A stretch of DNA of 59,914 nt from Synergistales bacterium (lineage in GTDB: Bacteria > Synergistota > Synergistia > Synergistales > 79-D21), in NCBI GenBank assembly GCA_036722335.1, contig DAIMJI010000001.1, positions 1-59,914 on the forward strand, in the 5' to 3' direction. The translations under genes were made by a program, and so were the position numbers. Positions 26,989 through 40,060 of this stretch are shown here, piece by piece. Under the pieces are notes generated by a model. The model saw nothing but the letters and a program-made list of their open reading frames with translations. It ran no database searches and was not told where the DNA came from. How positions within the stretch are numbered: position 1 is the stretch's first letter; each line of letters starts with the position of its first letter.

Positions 26989-28001
26989 ACGGGGACGGCG
27001 CGGGACTCTCCACGGCCCTCTGGTGGCACACGGAGAACGGCCGTGTCAAATGCGACCTCTGTCCTCACGAGTGCAGCCTCAAACCGGGACAGACCGGCCT
27101 TTGCGGAGTCCGCCGCGCGAACGCCTCCGGGGACACCCTTTTGTCACTGAATTTCCGCTTGGCGGCAAGCCTTCATCTCGATCCGGTGGAAAAGAAACCT
27201 CTTTTCCATTGGAGGCCGGGCTCGAAAATCCTTTCGGTGGGCACTGTCGGCTGCAACCTCAGGTGCCCGTTCTGCCAGAACTGGGAACTGGCCCGCTGGG
27301 ACTCATCGATTTCCCTGGAGGCCATCGATCCATGCACCCTGGTTGAAACCGCAAGGCAACACAAAAGTGATGCCGTTGCCTTCACCTACAATGAGCCGCT
27401 TGTCTGGTACGAATTCCTTCACGAAGCGGGCCCGCTCCTCAAACGGGAAGGTTTGGGGGTCGTTCTCGTCACGAACGGCACAATCAATCCCGCCCCCCTG
27501 CGGGAAATCCTCCCCTTCATCTCGGCTGCGAACGTGGACCTGAAAGTATTCACCGAGGAAGGATACAGGATGCTCGGAGGAGAACTCGGGACAGTGCTCC
27601 AAACGATCAAGGCAATGAAGGATGCGGGAATTCATGTCGAATTGACCCATCTGGTGGTTCCTGGCATCAATATCGACACGAGGGCCTTTGAAGAGATGGT
27701 CGACTGGATATCACAGGTCGACGAGAACATGCCCCTTCACCTGTCCCGCTATTTCCCGGCCTGGAAATGGGTTGAGGCAGCAACTCCGCTGGCGGCCATG
27801 GAGACTTTTCGTGAAATCGCCTCTCGAAAGCTCGCCTTCGTTTACATGGGAAATATCCCCGAAAAGGGGGTAACACGATGTCGTGGATGCGGGCGTGACA
27901 TTGTCGTACGTGAAGGATATAATGTTGTGCATATTGAATTAGCTCCAGACGGAAAGTGCCGTTATTGCGGTCAGGATAACGGCATCGTCATGAAGCACTA
28001 G
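26985..28001 (+). CDS. AmmeMemoRadiSam radical SAM enzyme
   Basis: CDLCPHEC, DPVEKKPLFH, GCNLRCPFCQN (CxxxCxxC), AFTYNEP, HLSRYFP, and C-terminal CRGC/CRYC. Confidence 0.9.
   Translation: MNGDGAGLSTALWWHTENGRVKCDLCPHECSLKPGQTGLCGVRRANASGDTLLSLNFRLAASLHLDPVEKKPLFHWRPGSKILSVGTVGCNLRCPFCQNWELARWDSSISLEAIDPCTLVETARQHKSDAVAFTYNEPLVWYEFLHEAGPLLKREGLGVVLVTNGTINPAPLREILPFISAANVDLKVFTEEGYRMLGGELGTVLQTIKAMKDAGIHVELTHLVVPGINIDTRAFEEMVDWISQVDENMPLHLSRYFPAWKWVEAATPLAAMETFREIASRKLAFVYMGNIPEKGVTRCRGCGRDIVVREGYNVVHIELAPDGKCRYCGQDNGIVMKH
27895..27923 (+). promoter_or_regulatory. Internal sigma70-like promoter GTGACA-N17-TATAAT inside the radical SAM gene, upstream of hutH
   Basis: 5/6 match at -35, 6/6 at -10, 17-nt spacer, 115 nt before hutH. 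The intergenic gap itself is only 37 nt. Confidence 0.6.
27957..27984. repeat. Perfect 9-bp inverted repeat TGCCGTTAT-N10-ATAACGGCA
   Basis: Arms at 27957-27965 and 27976-27984 are exact reverse complements. Confidence 0.7.
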
Positions 28002-28038
28002 GAATCCCGCGCGGGAAGTTGCGGAAGGAGGGGACATC

Positions 28039-29571
28039 TTGGACGGAAAAGTCATCGCTTTGAACGGGCATTCCCTTTCCCTGGAGGACGTGGTTAACGT
28101 CGCCAGGGGAGGATACGGAGTCGCTCTGGACCCGGCAGCCGTCACCTTCGTGGAAAGGGGAGGACGCATCGTCAGGGAATGGGCCCGAAGCGGAAAGGTC
28201 ATCTATGGGATTACGACCGGCTTCGGAGACCTGGCCTCAATCTCTATTCCTCCAGAGCAAAGCGAACTCCTGCAGAAAAACCTCCTCCTGAGCCATGCCT
28301 CGGGCGTGGGAGAGCCCCTGGCGGAAGACGCCGTTCGAGCCATCATGCTGCTCCGGATCAACACCCTGACCCGGGGCTTTTCGGGAATAAGCCTTGAAAC
28401 CCTGACCCAGCTTGTCAACTTCCTGAACCTGGGAATCCACCCTGTCATCCCAAGCCAGGGCTCCGTAGGGGCAAGCGGGGATCTCTGCCCGCTTTCCCAC
28501 CTTGCCGTGACCCTTCTCGGTGAGGGAGAAGTCTTCTTCGGAGGCCGAAGGATGCCCACAGCCATGGCCCTGAAGGAAGCGGGGCTAAGGCCGGTTTCCC
28601 TTAAACCCAAGGAAGGGCTCGCCTTGAACAATGGCACCGCGTTCATGACCGGCCTCGCCGCCCTGGCGGTTCACGACGCTTCCATCCTTGCAAAGGTTGC
28701 GGACATCGCGGCCGCACTGTCACTGGAAGCCCTTCACGGGGTCCCTTACGCCTTTGACCCGAGAACTCACGCGCTGCGTCCCCATACAGGACAGAAGCTG
28801 GTTGCCGAAAACGTTCTCTCCTTGATCCGGGAAAGCGAAATCATCGAGCATTTCAAGGGGAACCGGGTACAGGACGCCTATTCCCTGCGCTGCGTGCCGC
28901 AGGTCCATGGCGCGAGCAGGGACGCGCTCGAATATGTCCGGAGCAAGATCGACCTTGAAATCAACTCCGTTACGGACAACCCCCTCATCTTCCCGGCTGA
29001 CGGAGTGGCGATCAGCGGAGGCAATTTCCATGGTCAACCCATCGCCCTGGCCATGGACTTCTTCGGAATCGCCGCCGCTGAGCTTGCGGACATCTCCGAA
29101 CGGCGGGTTGCCCGTCTCGTTGACCATAAGCTTTCCGGGCTTCCCCCGTTCCTCGTTAAAGAAAGCGGCCTTAACAGCGGGTTCATGATCCCGCAATACA
29201 CCTGCGCCGCGCTTGTTTCAGAGAACAAGGTGCTGGCCCATCCCGCCTCGGTTGATTCCATTCCTACCTCCGCCAGCCAGGAAGACCATGTTTCGATGGG
29301 CGCCCATGCTACGAGGAAAGCTAGCCAGATCCTGGAAAACGCTTTCAACGTGCTTTCCATTGAAATCCTCTGCGCGGCCCAGGGTATCGATTTCAGCCGC
29401 CCTCTCAAGCCTGGGATTGGAACCCTCGCCGCACACGAAACGGTCCGCAAGGTGGTCCCGTTCTACGAAAAGGACTGCCTCATGGAGCCCCTGATCCGGT
29501 CTGTCAGGGAGGTCACGACAACCGGCAAGCTGGTGTCCGATGTGGAAAACGCCATAGGGACGATCAACTGA
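28039..29571 (+). CDS. hutH: Histidine ammonia-lyase
   Basis: IYGITTGFG, GASGDL (MIO-forming ASG), KEGLALNNG, VQDAYSLRCVPQVHG, GGNFHG, EDHVSMG. TTG start. Confidence 0.95.
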   Translation: MDGKVIALNGHSLSLEDVVNVARGGYGVALDPAAVTFVERGGRIVREWARSGKVIYGITTGFGDLASISIPPEQSELLQKNLLLSHASGVGEPLAEDAVRAIMLLRINTLTRGFSGISLETLTQLVNFLNLGIHPVIPSQGSVGASGDLCPLSHLAVTLLGEGEVFFGGRRMPTAMALKEAGLRPVSLKPKEGLALNNGTAFMTGLAALAVHDASILAKVADIAAALSLEALHGVPYAFDPRTHALRPHTGQKLVAENVLSLIRESEIIEHFKGNRVQDAYSLRCVPQVHGASRDALEYVRSKIDLEINSVTDNPLIFPADGVAISGGNFHGQPIALAMDFFGIAAAELADISERRVARLVDHKLSGLPPFLVKESGLNSGFMIPQYTCAALVSENKVLAHPASVDSIPTSASQEDHVSMGAHATRKASQILENAFNVLSIEILCAAQGIDFSRPLKPGIGTLAAHETVRKVVPFYEKDCLMEPLIRSVREVTTTGKLVSDVENAIGTIN

Positions 29572-29593
29572 ACAGGGAAAAGAAGGGATCCTC

Positions 29594-30460
29594 ATGCAGC
29601 TTTTCCTGGAACAGATGCTCAACGGTCTGGCGATAGGGGCAATCTACGCCCTGATTACGCTTGGCTTGGCCCTTGTCTATGGAATCCTTCGGATACTCCA
29701 CGTCGCGCATGCCGCGGTGTACACGGTTGGCGCGTATGTCGGGTTGGCGATTTTCTCGGCCACGCACAGCCTCGCCCTTGCCGTGGCAGGCTCGATGGCG
29801 TTTTGCGCGGTGCTGGGAGTCCTGATCGAGCGGTTCGTCTATTTCCCGCTGCTGAAATACCCGCCGTACGTCCCCCTTATCGGGAGCATCGCCTGCCTTT
29901 TGGGCATCGAGGAACTCTGCCGCCTGGTAGCGGGCCCCTACATCCTCTCTTTCCCCGCGGAACTGCCGTTCCCCAGCTTTTCTGTGGGCGGGATCTACAT
30001 TTCCTCGACGCTTTCGGCAGTTTACGGTATTAGTGCCGGGGTCCTGATCCTGCTCTGGATCCTGACGACGAAAACCGAACTGGGCCTGGCCATGCGCGCG
30101 ACTTCACAGGATATGGCGATCGCGAGTTCCGTGGGAATTAACAGCCACTGGATCATTTCGGTGACATTCATGATCGGTTCGGCCGTGGCGGCCATAGCAG
30201 GTATCCTGGTCGGCATCTACTATAACCAGGTTTACCCCTCAATGGGGGCCGTTCCGGCATACAAGACTCTCGCGCTGATCGTTGTCGGGGGACTGGGGTC
30301 CGTTCCAGGCGCGGTCCTGGCAGCCCTATTGCTAGGTATTTCAGAAACCCTGTTAATCGGTTATGCAGGCATCCCCCTTCCCCGTGACGCACTGGCCTTC
30401 ATCGCAATGATCGCGGTCCTTCTCTGGCGTCCCCAGGGACTCCTTGGCGGGCGCCGGTAA
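29594..30460 (+). CDS. livH: HAAT/LIV-family ABC transporter permease (LivH-like)
   Basis: NGLAIGAIYAL..LGL.LVYG, G.AMRA, GGLGSVPGA, RPQGLLG. Confidence 0.88.
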   Translation: MQLFLEQMLNGLAIGAIYALITLGLALVYGILRILHVAHAAVYTVGAYVGLAIFSATHSLALAVAGSMAFCAVLGVLIERFVYFPLLKYPPYVPLIGSIACLLGIEELCRLVAGPYILSFPAELPFPSFSVGGIYISSTLSAVYGISAGVLILLWILTTKTELGLAMRATSQDMAIASSVGINSHWIISVTFMIGSAVAAIAGILVGIYYNQVYPSMGAVPAYKTLALIVVGGLGSVPGAVLAALLLGISETLLIGYAGIPLPRDALAFIAMIAVLLWRPQGLLGGRR

Positions 30461-30476
30461 GGGGAGGAGGACGACC

Positions 30477-31361
30477 ATGAGCGATTATTCCATCACGATA
30501 GGCACGCTCATCACGATCCAGGCCATCGTCGCATGCGGCTTGAACGTGATCGTCGGCTATGCGGGCCAGATTTCCCTGGGACACGCCGCGTTTTTCGGTA
30601 TCGGTGCCTATTCTTCGGCACTTCTGACCACGTCGGCCGGGCTTTCCTTCTGGTCGGCCCTTCCGTTTGTCCTGCTCATTACGGGATTCATCGGCCTGGT
30701 ACTGGGCTTGCCCAGCCTTCGGCTAAAGGAGGATTTCCTGGCGATCACCACGATCGGGATCAATTTTATCGTGGTGTCGGTTTTCCTTTACGTCCCCTTT
30801 TTCGGGGGAGCCCTTGGAATTGGTGGAATCCCTAGGATTATCCTTCTGGGGCAAAGGCTTCGAGGCGCTCCATTCTTTTTCCTTTGCCTGGCCTTCCTGG
30901 GAATCGTGCAGGTCGTCAGCTGGCTTTTCACGCAAAGCTGGTCAGGGTTGGCCTGCTTCGCCCTCCGGGAGGACGAAGCAGCGGCAGCCAGCATGGGAGT
31001 ATCCCCCGTCCGCTTCAAGCTCGCGGCCTTCATTCTCGGGACCGCCATGGCGGGACTTGGGGGGGCTCTCTACGCCCATTTCATGCGGTTCATCAGCGCG
31101 ACCGACTTCGGCTTCCCCATGTCTGTCATGATCCTCTCGATGGTCGTCCTCGGGGGAATGGGTACCCTGTGGGGCCCGGTCCTTGGTGCCATCGTGCTGG
31201 GAATGCTTCCGGAGATTTTCCGGCCCTTGACCGATTACCGCATGTTCCTTTACGCAGCTCTCCTTCTCCTGATGATCCGGTTCCAACCAGGAGGGCTCCT
31301 GGGAGAAAGCAGCCTTGCGAAACAAGTCTTTTCCCGGGTTAGGGGGGGAAAAGTGGAATGA
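30477..31361 (+). CDS. livM: HAAT/LIV-family ABC transporter permease (LivM-like)
   Basis: GYAGQISLGHAAFFGIGAY, REDEAAA.SMGV, VLGGMGT, PGGLLG. ATG at 30477. Confidence 0.88.
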   Translation: MSDYSITIGTLITIQAIVACGLNVIVGYAGQISLGHAAFFGIGAYSSALLTTSAGLSFWSALPFVLLITGFIGLVLGLPSLRLKEDFLAITTIGINFIVVSVFLYVPFFGGALGIGGIPRIILLGQRLRGAPFFFLCLAFLGIVQVVSWLFTQSWSGLACFALREDEAAAASMGVSPVRFKLAAFILGTAMAGLGGALYAHFMRFISATDFGFPMSVMILSMVVLGGMGTLWGPVLGAIVLGMLPEIFRPLTDYRMFLYAALLLLMIRFQPGGLLGESSLAKQVFSRVRGGKVE

Positions 31362-32125
31362 GCGAGCCTCTTCTCAGCCTAAAGGAAGTCTCTATGCATT
31401 TTGGTGGGCTGAAGGCCCTGGACCGCATTTCTTTTGAGCTTCACGAAGGGGAAATCCTGGGCTTGATCGGCCCAAACGGGGCAGGAAAGACGACCTGTTT
31501 CAACACCATTTCGGGAGTCTACCGGCCAACGGCAGGAATGATCCTCTTCGGGGGGGTAAGGACCGACGGACTGCCTCCACAAAGAATGGCCGCCCTGGGC
31601 ATCGGGCGAACCTTCCAGATCGTACGGCCTTTCCCCAACCTTACTGTCCTGGAAAACGTCATCGTTGCCCTCGGGCTGGGCTGCTACCGGGGAATCATCC
31701 CTTCGTGCAGTTCCTGGAGAGGTAAAGTGACCCGGGAAAAGGCGATGGAACTCCTTTCGAAAGTCGGCCTGAAGGACGCCGCAACGCAAAAGGCGGGACT
31801 GCTTCCCTTGGGGAACCTGCGCAGGCTTGAACTTGCACGTGCTCTTGCGCTGAACCCCAGGCTCCTGCTCCTGGACGAATCCTTTTCCGGCTTGCGCCAC
31901 GAGGAAATATCCATGCAGGAACAACTCGTTCGACAGACTCGTGCAAGCGGCATCTCGGTCCTCCTTATCGAGCACAACATGCGTGTGGCAATGGGTCTTT
32001 CAGACAGGCTGGTCGTTTTGGACCATGGGCTGAAGCTCGCCGAAGGGAAACCCGAGAGCATACGCAAGAACCCCGACGTCATCCGGGCCTACCTGGGCAA
32101 GGGGGATGAACAGGATGCTGCTTGA
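31358..32125 (+). CDS. livG: ABC transporter ATP-binding protein (LivG-like)
   Basis: GPNGAGKTT, RTFQ, LLLLDE, IEHNM, V..AYLG. Confidence 0.9.
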   Translation: MSEPLLSLKEVSMHFGGLKALDRISFELHEGEILGLIGPNGAGKTTCFNTISGVYRPTAGMILFGGVRTDGLPPQRMAALGIGRTFQIVRPFPNLTVLENVIVALGLGCYRGIIPSCSSWRGKVTREKAMELLSKVGLKDAATQKAGLLPLGNLRRLELARALALNPRLLLLDESFSGLRHEEISMQEQLVRQTRASGISVLLIEHNMRVAMGLSDRLVVLDHGLKLAEGKPESIRKNPDVIRAYLGKGDEQDAA

Positions 32126-32825
32126 TGTCCGCGACCTTCGGATCGCCTACCGTGACATTGAGGCGGTCCACGATGTTTCTTTTTGCGTCGAAGAGGGGGA
32201 ACTCGTCTCGATCATCGGGGCCAATGGAGCCGGGAAGAGTTCCATCCTGAACGCCCTGATGGGTATCGTGCCGGTCAAGGCTGGCTCCATCCGCTATAGG
32301 GAAGAGGAAATTTCAGGGTTGCCCGCTCATGTTCGAGCCCGGAAGGGCATACGGATCGTCCCTGAAAGGGCACGTGTCTTCCCCAGGTTGACCGTCCGGG
32401 AAAATCTCAAGACGGGCCTGTACGGGATCCACGATGCGCGGAAGGAAAAGGAACGGCTTGAATGGCTTTTCGAACTTTTCCCGATACTCGAGGAAAGAAG
32501 CAACCAGGACGCCGTGACTCTTTCCGGGGGTGAACAGCAACAGTTGGCGATCGCGAGAGCCCTTGTCTCGGACCCACAGCTCCTGCTGGTGGACGAGGTT
32601 TCGATGGGACTCATGCCGAAGCTCGTCAACCAGGTGTTCGAGGTTCTGCAGCATTTAAACCGGGAGAAGGGGTTGACGATCCTGCTTGTCGAGCAAAATG
32701 CCCTTGCGTCTCTCGAGATATCCAAGCGGTCCTACGTTCTTGAAACGGGAAAGATACAGTTCGAGGGGCCTTCGATGGCAATAAGGGATGACCCAAGGGT
32801 GCGGGAAGCTTACCTGGGCCTGTAG
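32115..32825 (+). CDS. livF: ABC transporter ATP-binding protein (LivF-like)
   Basis: GANGAGKS, LSGGEQQ, LLVDE.SMGL.P, VEQNA, AYLG. Start 32115, alternative 32106. Confidence 0.9.
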   Translation: MLLDVRDLRIAYRDIEAVHDVSFCVEEGELVSIIGANGAGKSSILNALMGIVPVKAGSIRYREEEISGLPAHVRARKGIRIVPERARVFPRLTVRENLKTGLYGIHDARKEKERLEWLFELFPILEERSNQDAVTLSGGEQQQLAIARALVSDPQLLLVDEVSMGLMPKLVNQVFEVLQHLNREKGLTILLVEQNALASLEISKRSYVLETGKIQFEGPSMAIRDDPRVREAYLGL

Positions 32826-32878
32826 GGTCCTCCCTGCGACACGGAAAGCACATAATCTTAATCCGGGAGGTGTTCGTA

Positions 32879-34033
32879 ATGCGTGGTTTCAGGATTTCGG
32901 TGGTTGCCCTTCTCCTTATTTCCCTTTTCGCCGGCGGTGCCCTTGCGGCGGACACCGTGAAGATCGGGATGCTTGCGCCCCTGACCGGTTTTGCCGCAGC
33001 GGACGGGACAAGTGCATTGAACTCCGTCAGGATCGCTGTCGACCAGGTCAACTCAAAGGGAGGGATTCTTGGGAAGAAAGTCCAGCTCGTCGTCTACGAT
33101 GACAGGGCTGATGCGAAGGAAGCCGTCGCACTTGCCTACAAGCTGATCGAGCAGGACAAGATTTCCGCCTTCGTCGCCGGATCCTACAGCCTTCCCTCGA
33201 GGGCCGTGGCCCCCATCTTCCAGGAGGAAAAAATCCCCCTCGTCGCAGCCTACGCAATTCACCCGGACGTGACGAAAGCCGGCGAATACTGTTTCCGGAA
33301 CGGTTTCCTCGGAACGGTTGAGGGAAAGGCCGCCGCCTACACCGCTCATAAACTCCTCAACGCGAAGACCGTCGCCCTTTTGACCAGCGACAACGATTTC
33401 GGGAGGACCCTCGTCGAGGGATTCAAGATGTACCAGGCTAAATTCGGCAAGGACATGAAAATCGTTTACGAACAGGCCTATCCCTTCAGCGAGAAGGACT
33501 TCAAGCCCTATCTCTCGAAGATCAAGGAAGCCAACCCGGACGTTATCTTTGCGAGCGGCTACTATTTCCAGACCGGTCCGCTCCTGAAACAGGCCCGTGA
33601 GCTTGGGATCAAGTCAAGGATCCTCGGTGAGGAAGGCGCCGATTCCCCGAAGCTCGCCGAGATTGCCGGCGAGGCAGCAGAGGGGTTCTACATTGTCACC
33701 AACTTTGACCGTGACGACCCCAGGCCTGTCGTGCAGAATTTCCTGAAGGAGTACCGCAAGCGTTTCAAGATCGAGCCCGACATGGTCGGAGCCTCCGCCT
33801 ACGACGCTTTCATGATCATCGTCGACGCCATGCAGAAGACCAAGACGGTTTCCAATCCTACAGCGATCCGCATGGCTATCTCCAAGACGACCAACTACGA
33901 CGGGCTCACGGGAATCATCAAGGGCTTCACGCACATCGGCGAAGTGGTCAAGCCCGTCCAGGTCCAGATCGTCAAGAACGGCCTTTTCAGGAGGTTCGGC
34001 ATCGTGGACGATCCGGAGCTCATCCGTCCCTAA
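32879..34033 (+). CDS. livK: ABC transporter substrate-binding protein (LivK/LivJ-like)
   Basis: Signal peptide; VKIG..APLTG, YDDRAD, DFKPYLSKIK..NPD, AYDA. GGAGGT RBS before ATG 32879. Confidence 0.88.
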   Translation: MRGFRISVVALLLISLFAGGALAADTVKIGMLAPLTGFAAADGTSALNSVRIAVDQVNSKGGILGKKVQLVVYDDRADAKEAVALAYKLIEQDKISAFVAGSYSLPSRAVAPIFQEEKIPLVAAYAIHPDVTKAGEYCFRNGFLGTVEGKAAAYTAHKLLNAKTVALLTSDNDFGRTLVEGFKMYQAKFGKDMKIVYEQAYPFSEKDFKPYLSKIKEANPDVIFASGYYFQTGPLLKQARELGIKSRILGEEGADSPKLAEIAGEAAEGFYIVTNFDRDDPRPVVQNFLKEYRKRFKIEPDMVGASAYDAFMIIVDAMQKTKTVSNPTAIRMAISKTTNYDGLTGIIKGFTHIGEVVKPVQVQIVKNGLFRRFGIVDDPELIRP

Positions 34034-34047
34034 CGGGAGATTCTCTT

Positions 34048-34079
34048 AGGGGTGTGCTCGAAACGGCACACCCCTTTTT
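34048..34079 (+). terminator. Intrinsic terminator-like hairpin between livK and hutU
   Basis: AGGGGTGTGC / GCACACCCCT 10-bp stem, 8-nt loop, followed by a T run. Confidence 0.75.
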
Positions 34080-34124
34080 ACTTCAGGAACCCGTCCAGGG
34101 TTCCCCATGGAGGTGCAAGGAAAC

Positions 34125-36155
34125 ATGAAGACCAACCTGGAAATCTCGAAAGCGATGACGATCAAGCTTGATGGCCCCCTGCCCTCGGCACCGGGCTTTG
34201 TCCCGGGAATACGCAGGGCACCGGACAGGGGATACACCCTTAGCCGCCAGGAAACGGAACTGGCCCTGAAAAACGCGCTCCGGTACGTTCCCGAGGAGTG
34301 GCACGAACAACTCGCCCCCGAGTTCATGGAAGAACTGCTGACAAGGGGGCGCATCTACGGTTACCGTTTCCGTCCGCAAGGGCGCATCTGGGGTCGCCCC
34401 ATCGACGATTACAAGGGCAGGACCGTCGAGGGCCGGGCCTTCCAGGTGATGATCGACAACAACCTTGATTTCGACGTGGCCCTCTATCCCTACGAACTCG
34501 TGACCTACGGTGAAACGGGACAGGTTTGCCAGAACTGGATGCAGTACAGGCTGATCATGAAGTACCTCGAAGTCATGACCGAAGAACAGACGCTGGTGGT
34601 GCAATCCGGGCATCCACTCGGGCTCTTCCGGTCGAAGCCGGATTCGCCCAGGGTCATCATCACGAACGGCCTCATGGTGGGCATGTTCGACACCCAGGAC
34701 GAATGGCACAGGGCGATGCAGCTCGGCGTTTCCAATTACGGGCAAATGACAGCTGGGGGATGGATGTACATCGGTCCCCAGGGCATCGTCCACGGAACGT
34801 TCAACACACTCCTGAACGCGGGGAGGCTCAAGCTTGGGCTTGGCCCGGAAGAGGACCTGGCCGGGCGCCTTTTCATTTCGTCGGGCCTCGGGGGAATGAG
34901 CGGCGCCCAGCCAAAAGCGGCGGAAATCGCGGGAGCGGCAGGGATTTTCGCTGAGGTGGACGCCTCGAGGATCGAGACGAGGCACAGCCAGGGATGGGTC
35001 TCCCGTGTCACTTCCAGCCTCGACGAGGCTTTTTCCATGGCGGAAAGAGCCATCAAGGAAGGAAAGCCGCTTTCCATCGCCTACCATGGAAACATCGTCG
35101 ACCTCCTGGAATACGCGGTGAAAAACGGCAAGAAGGTCGAACTCCTTTCGGACCAGACCTCCTGCCACGCCCCCTACGACGGGGGCTACTGCCCGCAGGG
35201 GCTTTCGTTCGAGCAACGGACAGCCCTGCTTGCCACGGATCGGGCGGAGTACCGACGACGGGTGGATGAAAGTCTCAGGAAGCATTTTTCCCTGGTGAAG
35301 GCGCTCGTGGAAAGGGGAACCTACTTCTTCGACTACGGGAACTCGTTCATGAAGGCGGTTTTCGACGCCGGGGTGAAGGAAATCGCCAGGAACGGGCATG
35401 ACGAGCTCGACGGGTTCATCTTCCCCTCCTACGTGGAGGACATCATGGGCCCCATGCTCTTCGACTACGGGTACGGCCCCTTCAGGTGGGTCTGCCTCAG
35501 CGGAAGGCACGAGGACCTCGTGAAGACCGACCGGGCCGCGATGGATTGCATCGACCCCACCCGGAGGGGACAGGACCGCGACAACTGGATCTGGATCCGG
35601 GATGCCGAGAAGAACGCCCTGGTGGTCGGGACCCAGGCCCGCATCCTCTACCAGGATGCCGAGGGGCGGATGCGGATCGCCCACCGCTTCAACGAAATGG
35701 TGAGACAGCGGGAAATCGGCCCCGTGATGATGGGACGGGACCACCACGACGTTTCGGGCACGGATTCTCCTTTCCGCGAAACGGCCAACATCAAGGACGG
35801 GAGTTCGATCATGGCCGACATGTCCACTCACTGCTTCGCGGGCAACGCCGCCAGGGGCATGAGCCTTGTGGCCCTGCACAACGGCGGGGGAGTGGGAATC
35901 GGGAAGGCCGTCAACGGCGGCTTCGGGCTGGTCCTCGACGGAAGCGACAAGGCAGACCAGGCCATTGATCTCTCCCTGGCGTGGGATGTCATGGGAGGAG
36001 TGGCGAGACGGGCCTGGGCGAGGAACGGGAACGCCCTGTCCACAAGCATGGAGTACAACATGAACCGCGCGGGAACGGATCACATCACGCTGCCTTTCAT
36101 TCCCGACGATAGCCTTGTCCGCAAGACTGTGGACAGCGCGCTAGGGGAGGAATAG
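34125..36155 (+). CDS. hutU: Urocanate hydratase (long type, about 676 aa)
   Basis: MIDNNLD, ELVTYG, GQMTAG.WMYIGPQGIVHGT, GLGGMSGAQ, SDQTSCH, GRDHHD.SG, HNGGGVG. ATG at 34125 follows GGAGGT. Confidence 0.96.
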   Translation: MKTNLEISKAMTIKLDGPLPSAPGFVPGIRRAPDRGYTLSRQETELALKNALRYVPEEWHEQLAPEFMEELLTRGRIYGYRFRPQGRIWGRPIDDYKGRTVEGRAFQVMIDNNLDFDVALYPYELVTYGETGQVCQNWMQYRLIMKYLEVMTEEQTLVVQSGHPLGLFRSKPDSPRVIITNGLMVGMFDTQDEWHRAMQLGVSNYGQMTAGGWMYIGPQGIVHGTFNTLLNAGRLKLGLGPEEDLAGRLFISSGLGGMSGAQPKAAEIAGAAGIFAEVDASRIETRHSQGWVSRVTSSLDEAFSMAERAIKEGKPLSIAYHGNIVDLLEYAVKNGKKVELLSDQTSCHAPYDGGYCPQGLSFEQRTALLATDRAEYRRRVDESLRKHFSLVKALVERGTYFFDYGNSFMKAVFDAGVKEIARNGHDELDGFIFPSYVEDIMGPMLFDYGYGPFRWVCLSGRHEDLVKTDRAAMDCIDPTRRGQDRDNWIWIRDAEKNALVVGTQARILYQDAEGRMRIAHRFNEMVRQREIGPVMMGRDHHDVSGTDSPFRETANIKDGSSIMADMSTHCFAGNAARGMSLVALHNGGGVGIGKAVNGGFGLVLDGSDKADQAIDLSLAWDVMGGVARRAWARNGNALSTSMEYNMNRAGTDHITLPFIPDDSLVRKTVDSALGEE

Positions 36156-36160
36156 TCATT

Positions 36161-37084
36161 ATGGGCGGGAAACTCGTCGAATGCGTACCGAATTTCAGCG
36201 AGGGCAGGAGAACCGACGTCATCGAGTCGATCGTGGAAGCTTTCAGGAACAGGCCAGGGTGCACCCTTTTCGATTATCGTGCAGACCCTGATCACAACCG
36301 CCTTGTCGTGAGTCTCGCGGGAGAACCCGACGCGCTTGCGGAAGCCTTGCTCAAAGCCGCGGAAAGGGCCGTCAGGCATATCGACATGAACCACCACGAA
36401 GGAGCGCATCCGAGGATCGGGGCGGTCGACGTCATCCCCTTCACGCCCGTCCACGGAATTTCAATGGAGGAATGTGTCCGTTTCTCACGGGATTTCGGCA
36501 AACTCTACAACGAGAGAACCGGCATACCGGTCTACTATTACGAGGACTCGGCGCTAAGGCCTGAAAGATCGCGGCTTGAGGTCATCCGCAAGGGACAGTA
36601 CGAGGCGCTGAAGGAAGAATCGACCAGGCCCGAAAGGTTGCCCGACGTAGGCGGCCCGGCGCTGCATCCGACCGCAGGCGCGACGGTTATCGGGGCTCGC
36701 AAGTTCCTGGTCGCATTCAACGTGAACTTGAGAACGCGTGACCTTTCTGTGGCCAAGCAAATCGCCCAGGCGGTTCGCGCCTCGAGCGGAGGCCTATGCG
36801 CCGTCAAGGGAATCGGGGTCGCCCTTGAGGACAAGGGCATGGTCCAGGTCAGCATGAACATTGTGGATTACGAAAAGAACGCCCTATACAGGGTTCTCGA
36901 AATGATCCGCTTTGAAGCCCGCCGATGGGGAATCGAGGTTGCCGAGACGGAGATCTACGGCATGATACCTGCCCGGGCCCTGCTCGAAAGCGCGGCCTAC
37001 TACCTGCAGGTCGCCGGCTTCGACCCCCTCCAGGTCCTGGAACTCAAACTCCTGGAGCGGATGGGGACGGAGGAAAAGGAATGA
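36161..37084 (+). CDS. ftcD: Glutamate formiminotransferase
   Basis: VECVPNFSEGR, DPDHNR, HPRIGAVDVIPF, RKGQYE, AFNVNL, QVSMN. Confidence 0.93.
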   Translation: MGGKLVECVPNFSEGRRTDVIESIVEAFRNRPGCTLFDYRADPDHNRLVVSLAGEPDALAEALLKAAERAVRHIDMNHHEGAHPRIGAVDVIPFTPVHGISMEECVRFSRDFGKLYNERTGIPVYYYEDSALRPERSRLEVIRKGQYEALKEESTRPERLPDVGGPALHPTAGATVIGARKFLVAFNVNLRTRDLSVAKQIAQAVRASSGGLCAVKGIGVALEDKGMVQVSMNIVDYEKNALYRVLEMIRFEARRWGIEVAETEIYGMIPARALLESAAYYLQVAGFDPLQVLELKLLERMGTEEKE

Positions 37085-38358
37085 CCGTCAAGTTTTTTAC
37101 CAACGCACGATGTTACACGCCCGTGGATCCGGGACACCCCCTGTCCGGGACTCAACAGGGGAAAATCCGGGCAATTGCAAACTGCACAATCCTGACTGAA
37201 AATGGGCTCATCCGGGAAATCGGCCCGGAGAATGAAGTCCTGGAATCCGCCCGTTTTCTTGCCCCGGACATGGAAATCGATTGCGGCGGGAAATGCCTGA
37301 TACCGGGGTTTGTCGATCCACACACCCACCTTTGCTTTCGCGGGCTCAGGGAAGCCGAGTTCGCAATGCGCCTGGAGGGGATCCCCTACCTGGAGATTCT
37401 CAGGCGTGGGGGTGGTATCCTTTCCTCGGTGAGGCGGGTCCGGTCGGCCAGCGAAGAAGATCTCTATTCCTCAACGATGAACCTTGCCCGGTCCGCATTG
37501 GCGCATGGGACCACCACGATAGAGGTCAAGAGCGGCTACGGCCTTCAGACGGATTCCGAGCTCAAGATGCTCAGGGTCATCGAAAGGGTGGGAAAGCACT
37601 CTTTCCTGGACGTGGTGCCGACCTTCATGGGAGCCCATGCGGTGGCGGAGGAGTACAGGAACCGGCCCGAGGAGTTCGTCGAGATTATCCTAAGCGAAAT
37701 GCTTCCGGCAGTGGCAAAACAGGGAATCGCCCGCTATTGCGACGTTTTTTGTGAAGACGGGGTCTTTTCAATAGCCCAAAGCAGGCGTATCCTCGAAGCC
37801 GCGAAGAATCTGGGGTTGGGGATCAAGATACATGCGGACGAGGTTCACGACCTGGGAGGAGCGGCCTTGGCCGCTTCTCTGGGTGCCATCTCCGCGGAGC
37901 ACCTTCTTGCCGCTTCCGATGAAGGGCTCCATGCGATGGCCTCGGCAGGAACAGTGGCCATTTTATTGCCCGCGACTGCCTACAGCCTTGGAAAACCTTT
38001 CGCTCGCGGAAGGGATATGATCGGCATGAACGTTCCTGTCGCCCTGGCCACGGATTGCAACCCCGGTTCGTGTTTCTGCGAGTCGATGCCGTTCGTCTTT
38101 AGCCTCGCGGTCATGGGCATGCGCCTTTCCCCAGAGGAGGCCCTTGTCGCCGCGACTCTCAACGCCGCCTATGCGATCGGCATGGCACGGACCTGTGGAA
38201 GCCTCGAGCCGGGGAAAAAGGCGGACTTTCTCCTGCTGGACGGTGAAACTCCGGCAATTCTCGCGTACCATGCGGGTGTATCACCCGTAAAGGCCGTTTA
38301 TAAAGCTTCTGAATGCGTGTTTGAAGAAAGGAGCATCTTAGGTGATGTTCAGCAATGA
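37081..38358 (+). CDS. hutI: Imidazolonepropionase
   Basis: PGFVDPHTH, GGGILSSV, EVKSGYGL, DVFCEDG, HADE, SAEHL, ATDCNPG. ATG at 37081. Confidence 0.95.
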   Translation: MTVKFFTNARCYTPVDPGHPLSGTQQGKIRAIANCTILTENGLIREIGPENEVLESARFLAPDMEIDCGGKCLIPGFVDPHTHLCFRGLREAEFAMRLEGIPYLEILRRGGGILSSVRRVRSASEEDLYSSTMNLARSALAHGTTTIEVKSGYGLQTDSELKMLRVIERVGKHSFLDVVPTFMGAHAVAEEYRNRPEEFVEIILSEMLPAVAKQGIARYCDVFCEDGVFSIAQSRRILEAAKNLGLGIKIHADEVHDLGGAALAASLGAISAEHLLAASDEGLHAMASAGTVAILLPATAYSLGKPFARGRDMIGMNVPVALATDCNPGSCFCESMPFVFSLAVMGMRLSPEEALVAATLNAAYAIGMARTCGSLEPGKKADFLLLDGETPAILAYHAGVSPVKAVYKASECVFEERSILGDVQQ

Positions 38359-38971
38359 AACGCTTAAAGGTTTTCTGGAAGAACTCGGGTCATCCGAACC
38401 GACCCCCGGGGGCGGCTCCGCTGCCGCTCTCGCTGGTGCCCTTGCGAGCAGCCTCTGCACCATGGTTGCTTCGTTGACGCTAGGCAGGGAGCGGTTCAGG
38501 GAAAACTGGGCTGAAATGGAAACAGTGGCGGAAACAGGAAGGTCCCTGACCGAGGATTTGGTCCGGCTCATGGATCGTGACGCGGAAGCCTACGACTCGG
38601 TGATGGCGGCGATCAAGATGCCGAAGGAAACAGCCGAGGAAAAGGCCGCAAGGGAAATACGCCTCCAGGAAGCCCTCAAGAATGCCTGCAAGGTCCCTCT
38701 GGAAACCGTCGAGACCGTTGCAAAGGTTGGACAATTGATGGAATCGGTTCTCTTCAGGGGAAACCCGAACGCCATAACGGATGCCGGTTCCGCCGGAAGG
38801 CTGGCATGGGCTGCCGCCCATGCGGCAGCATACAATGTCAAGGTGAACCTCAAGAGCATAAAAGACACCGCATTCGTCGAAGAAACGCGGAAAAAGCTCG
38901 GCTTCGAGCTTGCCCAAGTGGAAGCCTCGGCTCTCCTGGCCGAGACGGAACTCATGAAGCAGCTTTCCTGA
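38342..38971 (+). CDS. Formiminotetrahydrofolate cyclodeaminase
   Basis: PTPGGGSAAA, D.DAEAY, ACKVP, NPNAITDAG, YNVKVNL. Alternative start ATG at 38345. Confidence 0.9.
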   Translation: MMFSNETLKGFLEELGSSEPTPGGGSAAALAGALASSLCTMVASLTLGRERFRENWAEMETVAETGRSLTEDLVRLMDRDAEAYDSVMAAIKMPKETAEEKAAREIRLQEALKNACKVPLETVETVAKVGQLMESVLFRGNPNAITDAGSAGRLAWAAAHAAAYNVKVNLKSIKDTAFVEETRKKLGFELAQVEASALLAETELMKQLS

Positions 38972-38974
38972 GCC

Positions 38975-40060
38975 GTGACTCAAGGGGAGAAGACCAGGCT
39001 GTCGACTGGCCTTGGCGCGAAGGGGATCGCTTTCCTGGCGATCCTGCTTTTCGTCACAATCGTTTCAAGGGGAAATGCCTGGTGGACGAGAATGGTTCCA
39101 CCTGGAAGAGGCAACCCCGTGGAAGCGGTTATCGAACCTGGCCAGAGCGCGTTGGCGGTTGCCCGTTCACTTGTCGCGCAGGGACTGACAGAAGGCGAAG
39201 CGCGGGCACTGGCTCGCTGGTTTTCCCTTCTTGGAGTGGACAAGAGACTTAAACCCGGTCTTTACAAGATTCGCCCCGGTACACCCTGGGAAGTGGCAAA
39301 GCAGATCCAGGCCCAGGAGCCGGATTCCGCAGGAATCCGGCTCCTGCCGGGGACCACGCTGACGGAAATCGGAGGCCTCCTTTCACAGTGGGGGGGAGAA
39401 TCGGCCCTTCGCCGTGAACTGTCTGCCACGACCAACTTTCCGGACCAAATACAGCCCTTTTTACCCTCGAATCCTGATTTCCGGCTGGCTTTCCTTTTGC
39501 CTGACACTTACAGGGTAACCCCTTCGGAAGTGGCGGTCAGGGAGCTCGTAAGGCTCGCGGCAAATAACTGGTGGGGGAAGGTCGGGGCCATGCTTCCGGA
39601 TGGTTTTGACTCGAAGTGGGTGGAAGAACGGGCTATCCTGGCTTCGATCAACGAACGGGAGTCAAGCGACGACTCGGAAAGGGCCCGCGTAGCGGGTGTT
39701 TTTGAAAATCGCTTACGCCTGGGTATGCCGCTCCAATCATGCGCGACCGTCGTTTTTGCCTGGAGGCAAAGGGGCAAAGTCCTCCATGGCCTTTCCTATA
39801 CCGACCTCCAGATCGATTCGCCCTATAATACTTACAGGAACAAAGGCCTGCCTCCCGGACCTATCGGCATCCCCTCTCTTCCTGCCTGGGAAGCCGCGCT
39901 TTTTCCGGAACATCACGATTTCCTTTTCTTTGTCCTGTCCGCTTCCGGTAAACACTTGTTCTCCAAGACCTACGAAGAACATCTTGCCGCCCAGAAAAAC
40001 GCAGAAAAGGAAAACCGGACAGGTTCAAACACAAGAAGGGAGCCCGAAGAAGGACCATGA
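38975..40060 (+). CDS. mltG: Endolytic transglycosylase MltG (YceG)
   Basis: N-terminal TM, LKPGLY, ASINERE, VFENRL..GMPLQS, SPYNTY...GLPPGPI. Confidence 0.9.
   Translation: MTQGEKTRLSTGLGAKGIAFLAILLFVTIVSRGNAWWTRMVPPGRGNPVEAVIEPGQSALAVARSLVAQGLTEGEARALARWFSLLGVDKRLKPGLYKIRPGTPWEVAKQIQAQEPDSAGIRLLPGTTLTEIGGLLSQWGGESALRRELSATTNFPDQIQPFLPSNPDFRLAFLLPDTYRVTPSEVAVRELVRLAANNWWGKVGAMLPDGFDSKWVEERAILASINERESSDDSERARVAGVFENRLRLGMPLQSCATVVFAWRQRGKVLHGLSYTDLQIDSPYNTYRNKGLPPGPIGIPSLPAWEAALFPEHHDFLFFVLSASGKHLFSKTYEEHLAAQKNAEKENRTGSNTRREPEEGP

Follow-up and report, generated by a model that had tools for sequence, protein, structure and literature searches.

A HAAT-family ABC transporter encoded within a histidine-utilisation operon of a Synergistales bacterium, and its widespread hut-associated relatives

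This report concerns an ATP-binding cassette (ABC) transporter whose genes lie inside a histidine-utilisation (hut) operon at positions 28,039 to 38,971 of a 59,914-nucleotide stretch of DNA, here called the window, from a Synergistales bacterium (GenBank assembly GCA_036722335.1, contig DAIMJI010000001.1, forward strand). The source assembly is small, with 1.18 Mb distributed over 60 contigs and a completeness of about 94%. Histidine transporters known from hut loci include HisJQMP, a member of the PAAT family, the ProU-like HutXWV, and the permeases HutT and HutM; dedicated urocanate permeases are also found in the hut loci of Pseudomonas. The window transporter resembles the histidine systems in its inferred role, the supply of histidine to HutH, and in its placement in or beside a hut operon, but those systems belong to unrelated transporter families or to other ABC subfamilies. 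Its closest counterparts are instead found in the HAAT family (TC 3.A.1.4), of which the E. coli branched-chain system LivJ/LivK-LivHMGF has the same five components (two BPD_transp_2 membrane subunits, two BCA_ABC_TP_C ATPases and a type I Peripla_BP_6 binding protein). The window binding protein shares the LivJ/LivK fold (Foldseek E about 1e-26) and keeps the equivalents of Ser79, Tyr202 and Glu226, but identity to the E. coli system is only about 25%, the window genes are embedded in a hut operon, the hydrophobic residues Tyr/Trp18, Leu77, Cys78, Ala100 and Ala103 are replaced by Asp, Ser, Tyr, Tyr and His, and Thr102 is lost.

The closest solved structure is the Thermotoga maritima TM1135 "LivK" protein, 3td9 (E 1.5e-53, TM-score 0.81/0.89, 32% identity). 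It has Phe at the position of Asp45 of the window protein, Ala-Ser-Thr-Asn for Tyr-Ala-x-His and Val-Ala for Ser105-Tyr106, and these differences in the pocket place it outside the hut-linked signature clade described below. A HAAT system that carries histidine has already been documented, namely the N-I system (NatABCDE) of the cyanobacterium Anabaena, for which histidine was shown experimentally to be one substrate among many (PMC4500139, Table 1); N-I differs from the window system in recognising nearly all proteinogenic amino acids, with a preference for Pro and hydrophobic residues, and in having scattered genes with no hut linkage. A full-text literature search returned no description of a HAAT system as the transporter of a hut locus, and a paper on the HisR regulon names only HisXYZ, YuiF and hisT (PMC9413887). 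The aromatic-acid HAAT proteins of Rhodopseudomonas palustris (4f8j, 4eyo, p-coumarate) have the common fold and bind an acrylate-substituted ring that resembles urocanate, but they are much more distant (E about 1e-11) and their ligands are carboxylic acids that lack an amino group. The ligands of solved HAAT-fold proteins are diverse and include amino acids, keto acids, aromatic acids, urea and pyroglutamate; of the 50 best structural matches, no solved protein of the family has a title that names histidine as its ligand. RB-TnSeq and GapMind reportedly list a five-component "L-histidine ABC transporter" (Ac3H11_2554 to 2562) of Acidovorax sp. GW101-3H11; the name Acidovorax is absent among the 120 closest relatives of one Burkholderiales member of the clade. 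Such a system could make the function proposed here one that is already known.

All ten genes of the operon were recovered from the open reading frame (ORF) listing and from Pfam and NCBIfam matches, in a single orientation. An earlier reading of this DNA made from the sequence alone had described a hutH-livHMGF-livK-hutU-ftcD-hutI-cyclodeaminase order with gaps under 100 nucleotides (nt), and both the order and the coordinates hold. Start codons were refined by their ribosome-binding sites at livM (30477), the binding-protein gene (32879), hutU (34125), hutI (37081) and the cyclodeaminase gene (38345).

28039..29571, + strand: hutH, histidine ammonia-lyase, 510 residues, TTG start with GGAGG on its 5' side (Lyase_aromatic 671 bits; TIGR01225 671.8 bits, cut-off 539)
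29594..30460, + strand: LivH-like permease, 288 residues (BPD_transp_2, E 4.3e-36; LivH equivalog model 132 bits, cut-off 379)
30477..31361, + strand: LivM-like permease, start moved from 30444 to the ATG at 30477, which has a strong GGAGG ribosome-binding site (BPD_transp_2, E 1.3e-42)
31358..32125, + strand: LivG-like ATPase, 255 residues (ABC_tran and BCA_ABC_TP_C; LivG model 245 bits, cut-off 362)
32106..32825, + strand: LivF-like ATPase, 239 residues, start possibly at 32115 (ABC_tran, E 3.9e-32; LivF model 218 bits, cut-off 441)
32879..34033, + strand: substrate-binding protein of the hut-linked HAAT clade, predicted to be periplasmic (Peripla_BP_6 230.9 bits; signal peptide MRGF...GGALA|AD)
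34125..36155, + strand: hutU, urocanate hydratase, long form (Urocanase_N, Urocanase and Urocanase_C; TIGR01228 435.6 bits, cut-off 375)
36161..37084, + strand: ftcD, glutamate formimidoyltransferase (TIGR02024 389 bits, cut-off 221)
37081..38358, + strand: hutI, imidazolonepropionase, overlapping ftcD in an ATGA (TIGR01224 463 bits, cut-off 298)
38345..38971, + strand: formimino-tetrahydrofolate cyclodeaminase (FTCD_C 222 bits; the FchA model of NCBIfam 188 bits, under its cut-off of 275)

The five enzymes of the folate-dependent hut pathway (HutH, HutU, HutI, FtcD and the cyclodeaminase) are thus all encoded, four of them identified above equivalog cut-offs and the fifth by Pfam FTCD_C. From hutH to the cyclodeaminase gene the successive junctions measure 22, 16, -4, about -11, 53, 91, 5, -4 and -14 nt, so that none exceeds 91; the value of about -11 between livG and livF assumes the livF start at 32115 and becomes -20 with the ORF start at 32106. 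The same gene order recurs in a second locus of the same genus and in a genome of another class, which indicates that the arrangement is not due to chance.

The transporter belongs to the HAAT family by architecture and fold, without being an equivalog of the branched-chain system of E. coli. In addition to the two BPD_transp_2 membrane subunits, both ATPases match ABC_tran, and the BCA_ABC_TP_C domain scores 42.3 bits in the first and 24.8 bits in the second, just below the cut-off of 25.5. The binding protein combines its Peripla_BP_6 match and signal peptide with a LivJ/LivK-like fold in an AlphaFold2 model (pLDDT 93), whose top structural matches, 3td9 and 4gnr, are amino-acid-binding HAAT proteins. 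All five components fall short of the E. coli Liv equivalog cut-offs, the LivM-like permease with 187 bits against 366 and the binding protein with 153 against 477, and the others as listed above; the LivH-like permease lies so far under its cut-off that it cannot be taken for an E. coli LivH equivalog.

In LivJ the hydrophobic ligand contacts are Tyr18, Leu77, Cys78, Ala100, Ala101, Ala103, Tyr150, Tyr202 and Phe276, and the polar contacts are Ser79 and Thr102 (PMC6983066). The LivJ positions were carried over to the window protein by HMMER alignments to LivJ, LivK, 3td9 and 4gnr, with residues of the window protein numbered from GTG 32870. We take Glu226 of LivJ and LivK, from their crystal structures, to be the ligand of the alpha-ammonium group, and Ser79, Tyr202 and Glu226 of LivJ presumably hold the amino-acid backbone together. 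The correspondences are as follows.

LivJ Tyr18 (Trp18 in LivK), the aromatic lid: Asp45
LivJ Leu77: Ser105
LivJ Cys78: Tyr106
LivJ Ser79: Ser107
LivJ Ala100: Tyr128
LivJ Ala101: Ala129
LivJ Thr102: Ile130 (Val, Ile, Leu or Thr across the clade)
LivJ Ala103: His131
LivJ Tyr150: Phe177
LivJ Tyr202: Tyr231
LivJ Glu226: Glu255

Within the LivJ-type hydrophobic pocket (Tyr/Trp18, Leu77, Cys78, Ala100, Ala101, Ala103, Tyr150 and Phe276, with Thr102), only the equivalents of Ala101 and Tyr150 are kept, as Ala and Phe. The full signature of the window protein reads Asp45, Ser105-Tyr106-Ser107, Arg111, Tyr128-Ala129-x-His131-Pro132, Asp176, Phe177, Tyr231, Glu255, Asp258-Ser259-Pro260 and Arg281-Asp282. 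Among 39 Synergistota orthologs Asp45, Ser105, Tyr106, Ser107, Tyr128, His131 and Tyr231 are invariant, as are Arg111, Asp258-Ser259 and Arg281, and Glu255 is nearly so (Gln in four); in the 80 loci of a cross-species scan, described below, these pocket and signature residues are nearly invariant. Positions that vary outside the Synergistota are Pro109, Pro260, Asp282, Arg285 and Met305. In paralogs and in relatives that lack the signature, position 45 is mostly occupied by an aromatic or small residue and position 130 by Thr or Ser, and the three other HAAT binding proteins of the window genome likewise conform to the usual pattern of Thr with aromatic or small residues. As far as alignment can tell, a retained backbone triad with a side-chain pocket that has changed from hydrophobic to polar and acidic fits an amino acid bearing an imidazole ring.

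These residues define a coherent group. Each of 41 related genomes has one clear ortholog of the binding protein (E below 1e-100, 45-94% identity; 44-94% by tblastn over the wider set of orthologs), set apart from paralogs at 40% or less, and an ortholog, nearly always in single copy, is carried by 93 of the 268 Synergistota species genomes. The nearest public binding proteins come from Synergistaceae and Synergistales metagenome-assembled genomes (MAGs) and from Aminivibrio. On this basis an origin in a spore-forming Firmicute, to which the SpoIID and queA genes nearby had pointed, was rejected in favour of the Synergistota. The window protein as sole query draws 1641 cluster representatives at E <= 1e-60, not all of them clade members; a whole-library HMMER search with residue scoring found proteins at 38-48% identity that have the pocket residues of the orthogroup, under names that include Caldisericum and Herpetosiphon. 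In a FastTree tree of 138 binding proteins (support given as SH-like values), all 117 signature-bearing rows, the window protein among them, lie on one side of a branch with support 100, and 18 representatives without the signature lie on the other side together with three Synergistota paralogs. The hut-linked core of the clade has support 98. Within the clade the Synergistota sequences do not form a monophyletic group, a pattern that suggests horizontal transfer. The Herpetosiphon group falls outside the core: Herpetosiphon and its relatives contribute six orphan binding proteins (L052-L057) that have 13 of 16 signature residues and branch just outside it; within 10 kb of each there is neither a permease or ATPase gene nor any hut gene.

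Linkage to hut genes was followed in 38 ortholog loci of the Synergistota, onto which the window proteins were mapped by tblastn (G and L numbers denote the genomes and loci compared). The transporter stands beside hut genes in about half of them, in about a dozen different gene orders. The arrangement hutH-livHMGF-binding protein-hutU-ftcD-hutI-fchA is common to the window, G003 and G041, the last from a different class, and its recurrence within the genus of the window is seen at L013. Elsewhere the order is hutH-liv-binding protein-ftcD-hutI-fchA (G177), hutH-liv-binding protein alone, in the same queA...mltG chromosomal slot (G016 and G025), binding protein-hutU-liv (G008), ftcD-hutI-hutU-liv-binding protein (G065), hutU followed after 2 kb by liv-binding protein (G204, G206 and G246) or binding protein-hutU-ftcD (G046 and G047), and the layout is convergent in G151 and divergent in G013. 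The most conserved pair in the phylum is that of the binding-protein gene and hutU. The partner hutU itself is of three sequence types, with TIGR01228 scores of about 990, 620 and 440 bits, and each type occurs next to the transporter. A linkage that outlasts repeated rearrangement and replacement of the partner is a classical sign of functional coupling. Of the 93 genomes with an ortholog, about 88 also carry hutH and about 87 carry hutU, as compared with 178 and 175 of the 268 genomes phylum-wide; these figures are a description and not a statistical test, since the genomes are related, and most of the exceptions are incomplete MAGs.

Several of these loci have peculiarities of their own. 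In G004 (C7:91235-95069) all that lies between hutH and hutU is a 95-residue remnant of the C-terminal end of the binding protein, with 89% identity to residues 293-387. This hut operon seems to have lost its transporter by deletion, and another contig carries a second copy of the binding protein, full-length and 78% identical. In G041 (L032, 12195-18030) a 6-kb cassette separates livM from livG and breaks none of the transporter genes. It encodes a zinc alcohol dehydrogenase, a DUF2148 protein, a short-chain dehydrogenase/reductase, a PCC-domain protein, TRAP DctQ and DctM and a truncated 2-oxoacid dehydrogenase E2, and this content is unrelated to histidine utilisation, so the insert was rejected as a source of extra hut genes. 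In G008 (L015) a second, divergent hut cluster (hutH, hutU, hutI, fchA and ftcD, 31-51% identity) directly adjoins binding protein-hutU-livHMGF. The chromosomal slot flanked by queA, Memo-AMMECR1 and a radical-SAM gene on one side and by mltG and tldD on the other is kept across families, with the hut-transporter block inside it, in L044 (G177) and in L020 and L021 (G016 and G025); in these three loci the slot no longer holds hutU or hutU-ftcD-hutI-fchA, which lies elsewhere in the genome.

Beyond the Synergistota, a scan of one genome per prokaryotic species with three signature-bearing relatives as the query returned 80 loci, 55 of which have hut genes within the fetched stretch (10 kb); of the 31 that have a full transporter and 8 kb or more of sequence on each side, 26 are hut-linked. 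The loci belong to at least 12 phyla: Thermodesulfobacteriota, Pseudomonadota, Methylomirabilota, Bacillota, Myxococcota, Thermotogota, Acidobacteriota, Bipolaricaulota, Rokuibacteriota, Sysuimicrobiota, Synergistota and the archaeal Thermoproteota. Individual clusters vary in content: six loci of the Methylomirabilota type have hutH and the transporter and lack hutU, and in Desulfosarcina widdelii the order is hutU-ftcD-fchA-hutI-binding protein-liv, with hutH 1.6 Mb away. Among five transporter-bearing genomes checked outside the Synergistota, four also have hutH. Three loci from Desulfurococcales MAGs (L090, L094 and L116) encode a binding protein of the same clade and livHMGF adjoining homologs of hutU, hutI and hutH, which indicates inter-domain transfer of the whole module.

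The window transporter is typical of a coherent and widespread HAAT clade, associated with hut genes, to which annotation pipelines give the label "branched-chain". The sequence-only reading had proposed a HAAT transporter specialised for the hut pathway that automated annotation would mislabel as a branched-chain system, and this proposal gains support from the linkage within the Synergistota and across at least 12 phyla, from the monophyly of the binding-protein clade and from the replacements in the pocket. The hut-liv synteny that it had suggested seeking in other organisms does exist there, and its treatment of the arrangement as unusual does not stand.

We consider it probable, from the combined evidence of gene context and pocket residues, that the transporter is a hut-dedicated ABC importer of the HAAT family and that its substrate is L-histidine. 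The secreted binding protein would capture histidine in the periplasm (the Synergistota are diderm), its signal peptide probably having been cut after ALA. Ser107, Tyr231 and Glu255 would hold the amino-acid backbone, and the polar, acidic pocket formed by Asp45, Ser105, Tyr106, Tyr128 and His131 would receive the side chain in place of the hydrophobic LivJ pocket. Histidine would then be passed from the binding protein to the LivH/LivM-like permease pair, powered by the LivG/LivF-like ATPases, and in the cytoplasm the presumably co-transcribed HutH, HutU, HutI, FtcD and cyclodeaminase would, in that order, convert it to glutamate, two ammonia and methenyl-tetrahydrofolate. The window genome has one PAAT-type binding domain only and no match to AA_permease_2, so it would appear that few alternative histidine importers exist in this small genome. 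Such an assignment is useful and is not surprising, as one expects an ABC importer encoded in a catabolic operon to take up the substrate of its pathway, and a histidine-accepting HAAT system is already known.

Several observations weigh against it. About half of the Synergistota orthologs examined do not lie within 10 kb of hut genes; such unlinked orthologs are found, for instance, in Aminivibrio and the genera g21, g47, g45 and g11. One of these orthologs (L045) follows an ilvD-like gene (585 bits, cut-off 618), which could hint at a branched-chain link. The neighbours of the unlinked orthologs are otherwise mixed (a thiamine diphosphate enzyme, a glycyl-radical enzyme, an M20 peptidase and a serine dehydratase, besides the ilvD-like gene), and a search for a consistent alternative gene context among them found none. 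In the 80 scan loci the commonest neighbour is hutU (43 loci), followed by hutI (24) and only then by hutH (19). The equivalent of Thr102 is aliphatic in the clade, and Thr or Ser fills this position in most of the compared relatives that lack the signature, so that the mode of backbone binding may differ from that of LivJ. Finally, the pocket roles were assigned by alignment and not from coordinates, with the role of Glu226 taken from the LivJ structures.

Some of these points would be accommodated if the transporter imported urocanate, alone or together with histidine, and so took up urocanate released by other organisms, a reading that we hold to be unlikely, though it is the strongest of the alternatives. 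The carboxylate of urocanate would occupy the usual alpha-carboxylate site, with Asp45 and Glu255 hydrogen-bonded to the imidazole. The prominence of hutU among the neighbours in the scan (43 loci as against 19 for hutH), the conservation of the binding protein-hutU pair in the Synergistota, the D. widdelii cluster with its distant hutH and the loss of the Thr102 equivalent all speak for urocanate, as does the ability of solved HAAT binding proteins to hold the structurally similar p-coumarate (4f8j, 4eyo). However, hutH is present in nearly all transporter genomes (the approximately 88 of 93 in the phylum and the four of five outside it), and no reasonably complete one forces urocanate as the substrate; some clusters combine hutH and the transporter with no hutU. 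The 98%-complete genome G056 has an ortholog and two copies of hutH, a search at E <= 1e-60 found no hutU in it, and it is possibly an organism that takes histidine to urocanate only. An acidic pocket that pairs Glu255 with an added Asp45 would also be unusual for an anion that lacks an amine, and the sequence is far nearer to the amino-acid binders (3td9, E 1.5e-53) than to the aromatic-acid binders (4jb0, E 4.5e-11). The sequence-only reading had seen in the position of the transporter between hutH and hutU a pointer to urocanate, but gene order varies freely among the relatives, so this position carries no special weight and neither favours nor excludes urocanate. The phyletic pattern does not separate the two substrates, since no reasonably complete transporter-bearing genome was found to lack hutH. 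Judged on the residues and gene contexts, histidine is favoured over urocanate by the retention of Glu255, the greater closeness to amino-acid than to aromatic-acid binders, the clusters with hutH only and the failure to find hutU in G056. Most of the known transporters of hut loci carry histidine, which also speaks for this substrate.

A substrate that is some other imidazole compound or histidine derivative (a histidine dipeptide, histamine, imidazole lactate or a betaine of the hercynine type) and is fed into the hut pathway seems improbable. The pocket has clearly been remodelled for a polar or cationic ligand and the ligands of the family are very diverse, but Pfam and NCBIfam searches of the cluster found none of the genes that such substrates would need (peptidase, decarboxylase, oxidase or demethylase), the window HutU passes the ordinary hutU model and none of the thiourocanate hydratase models of NCBIfam, and the kept backbone triad suits a free alpha-amino acid. 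About as improbable is an ordinary branched-chain or broad amino-acid importer that came to lie in the hut operon by happenstance: family-level matches to LivHMGF and LivJ/K, the many unlinked Synergistota orthologs, one of them behind the ilvD-like gene, and the existence of broad HAAT systems such as Anabaena N-I could be cited for it, but every Liv equivalog score is far under its cut-off (153 against 477 for the binding protein), five of the 11 LivJ pocket positions (PMC6983066) have become the clade-invariant polar or charged residues Asp45, Ser105, Tyr106, Tyr128 and His131 with a sixth, Thr102, also changed, the three other HAAT binding proteins of the genome keep the usual residues, and chance would not be expected to produce hut linkage that recurs across at least 12 phyla and many gene orders.

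If the histidine assignment is correct, the "branched-chain" label given to these proteins in at least 12 phyla should become that of a histidine (or urocanate) importer, and metabolic reconstructions would change for amino-acid fermenters and syntrophs of the Synergistota, Syntrophaceae, Desulfobacterales and Methylomirabilota, in whose models the missing uptake step of the hut pathway would be filled. The clade signature of Asp45, Ser-Tyr-Ser at 105-107, Tyr128 and His131 provides a rule for such re-annotation. Should the clade instead consist of urocanate or dual histidine/urocanate importers, which we doubt, a large group of ABC systems that now carry the wrong label, in anaerobes, syntrophs and some archaea, would serve for cross-feeding on urocanate released by neighbours that possess histidine ammonia-lyase, and the exchange of the aromatic lid for Asp would be a sequence marker of imidazole recognition in the LivJ fold.

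The remaining features of the window operon concern its surroundings and its possible regulation. It is flanked on the 5' side by queA, a Memo-AMMECR1 fusion and a radical-SAM gene and on the 3' side by mltG, yqeH, tldD and ftsK, and the cluster contains no regulator gene. The HutU protein has roughly 90 extra residues at its N-terminus, the TIGR01228 match starting at residue 109 of the ORF from 34107. No riboswitch or leader RNA family of Rfam was matched in 27000-40000. Two candidate regulatory sites were found.

27895..27923, + strand: promoter-like site GTGACA-17-TATAAT, sigma-70-like, with 11 of 12 consensus matches, a candidate promoter of the hut operon
34048..34075, + strand: GC-rich, 11-pair hairpin with TTTTT after it, immediately 3' of the binding-protein stop codon, the top terminator-like site of the region

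The promoter-like site lies within the 3'-terminal part of the radical-SAM gene, with the hutH start about 115 nt downstream, and is the only one of its kind in 27400-39600, a region for which shuffled sequences average 3.3. Most of the related loci of the Synergistota that were examined (L002-L005, L015, L034 and L044) have a strong hairpin at the position equivalent to 34048-34075; it differs in sequence and is not followed by a T run in every case. The window hairpin may be a partial terminator or a stabiliser of the mRNA 3' end that adjusts the level of the transporter relative to that of the enzymes.

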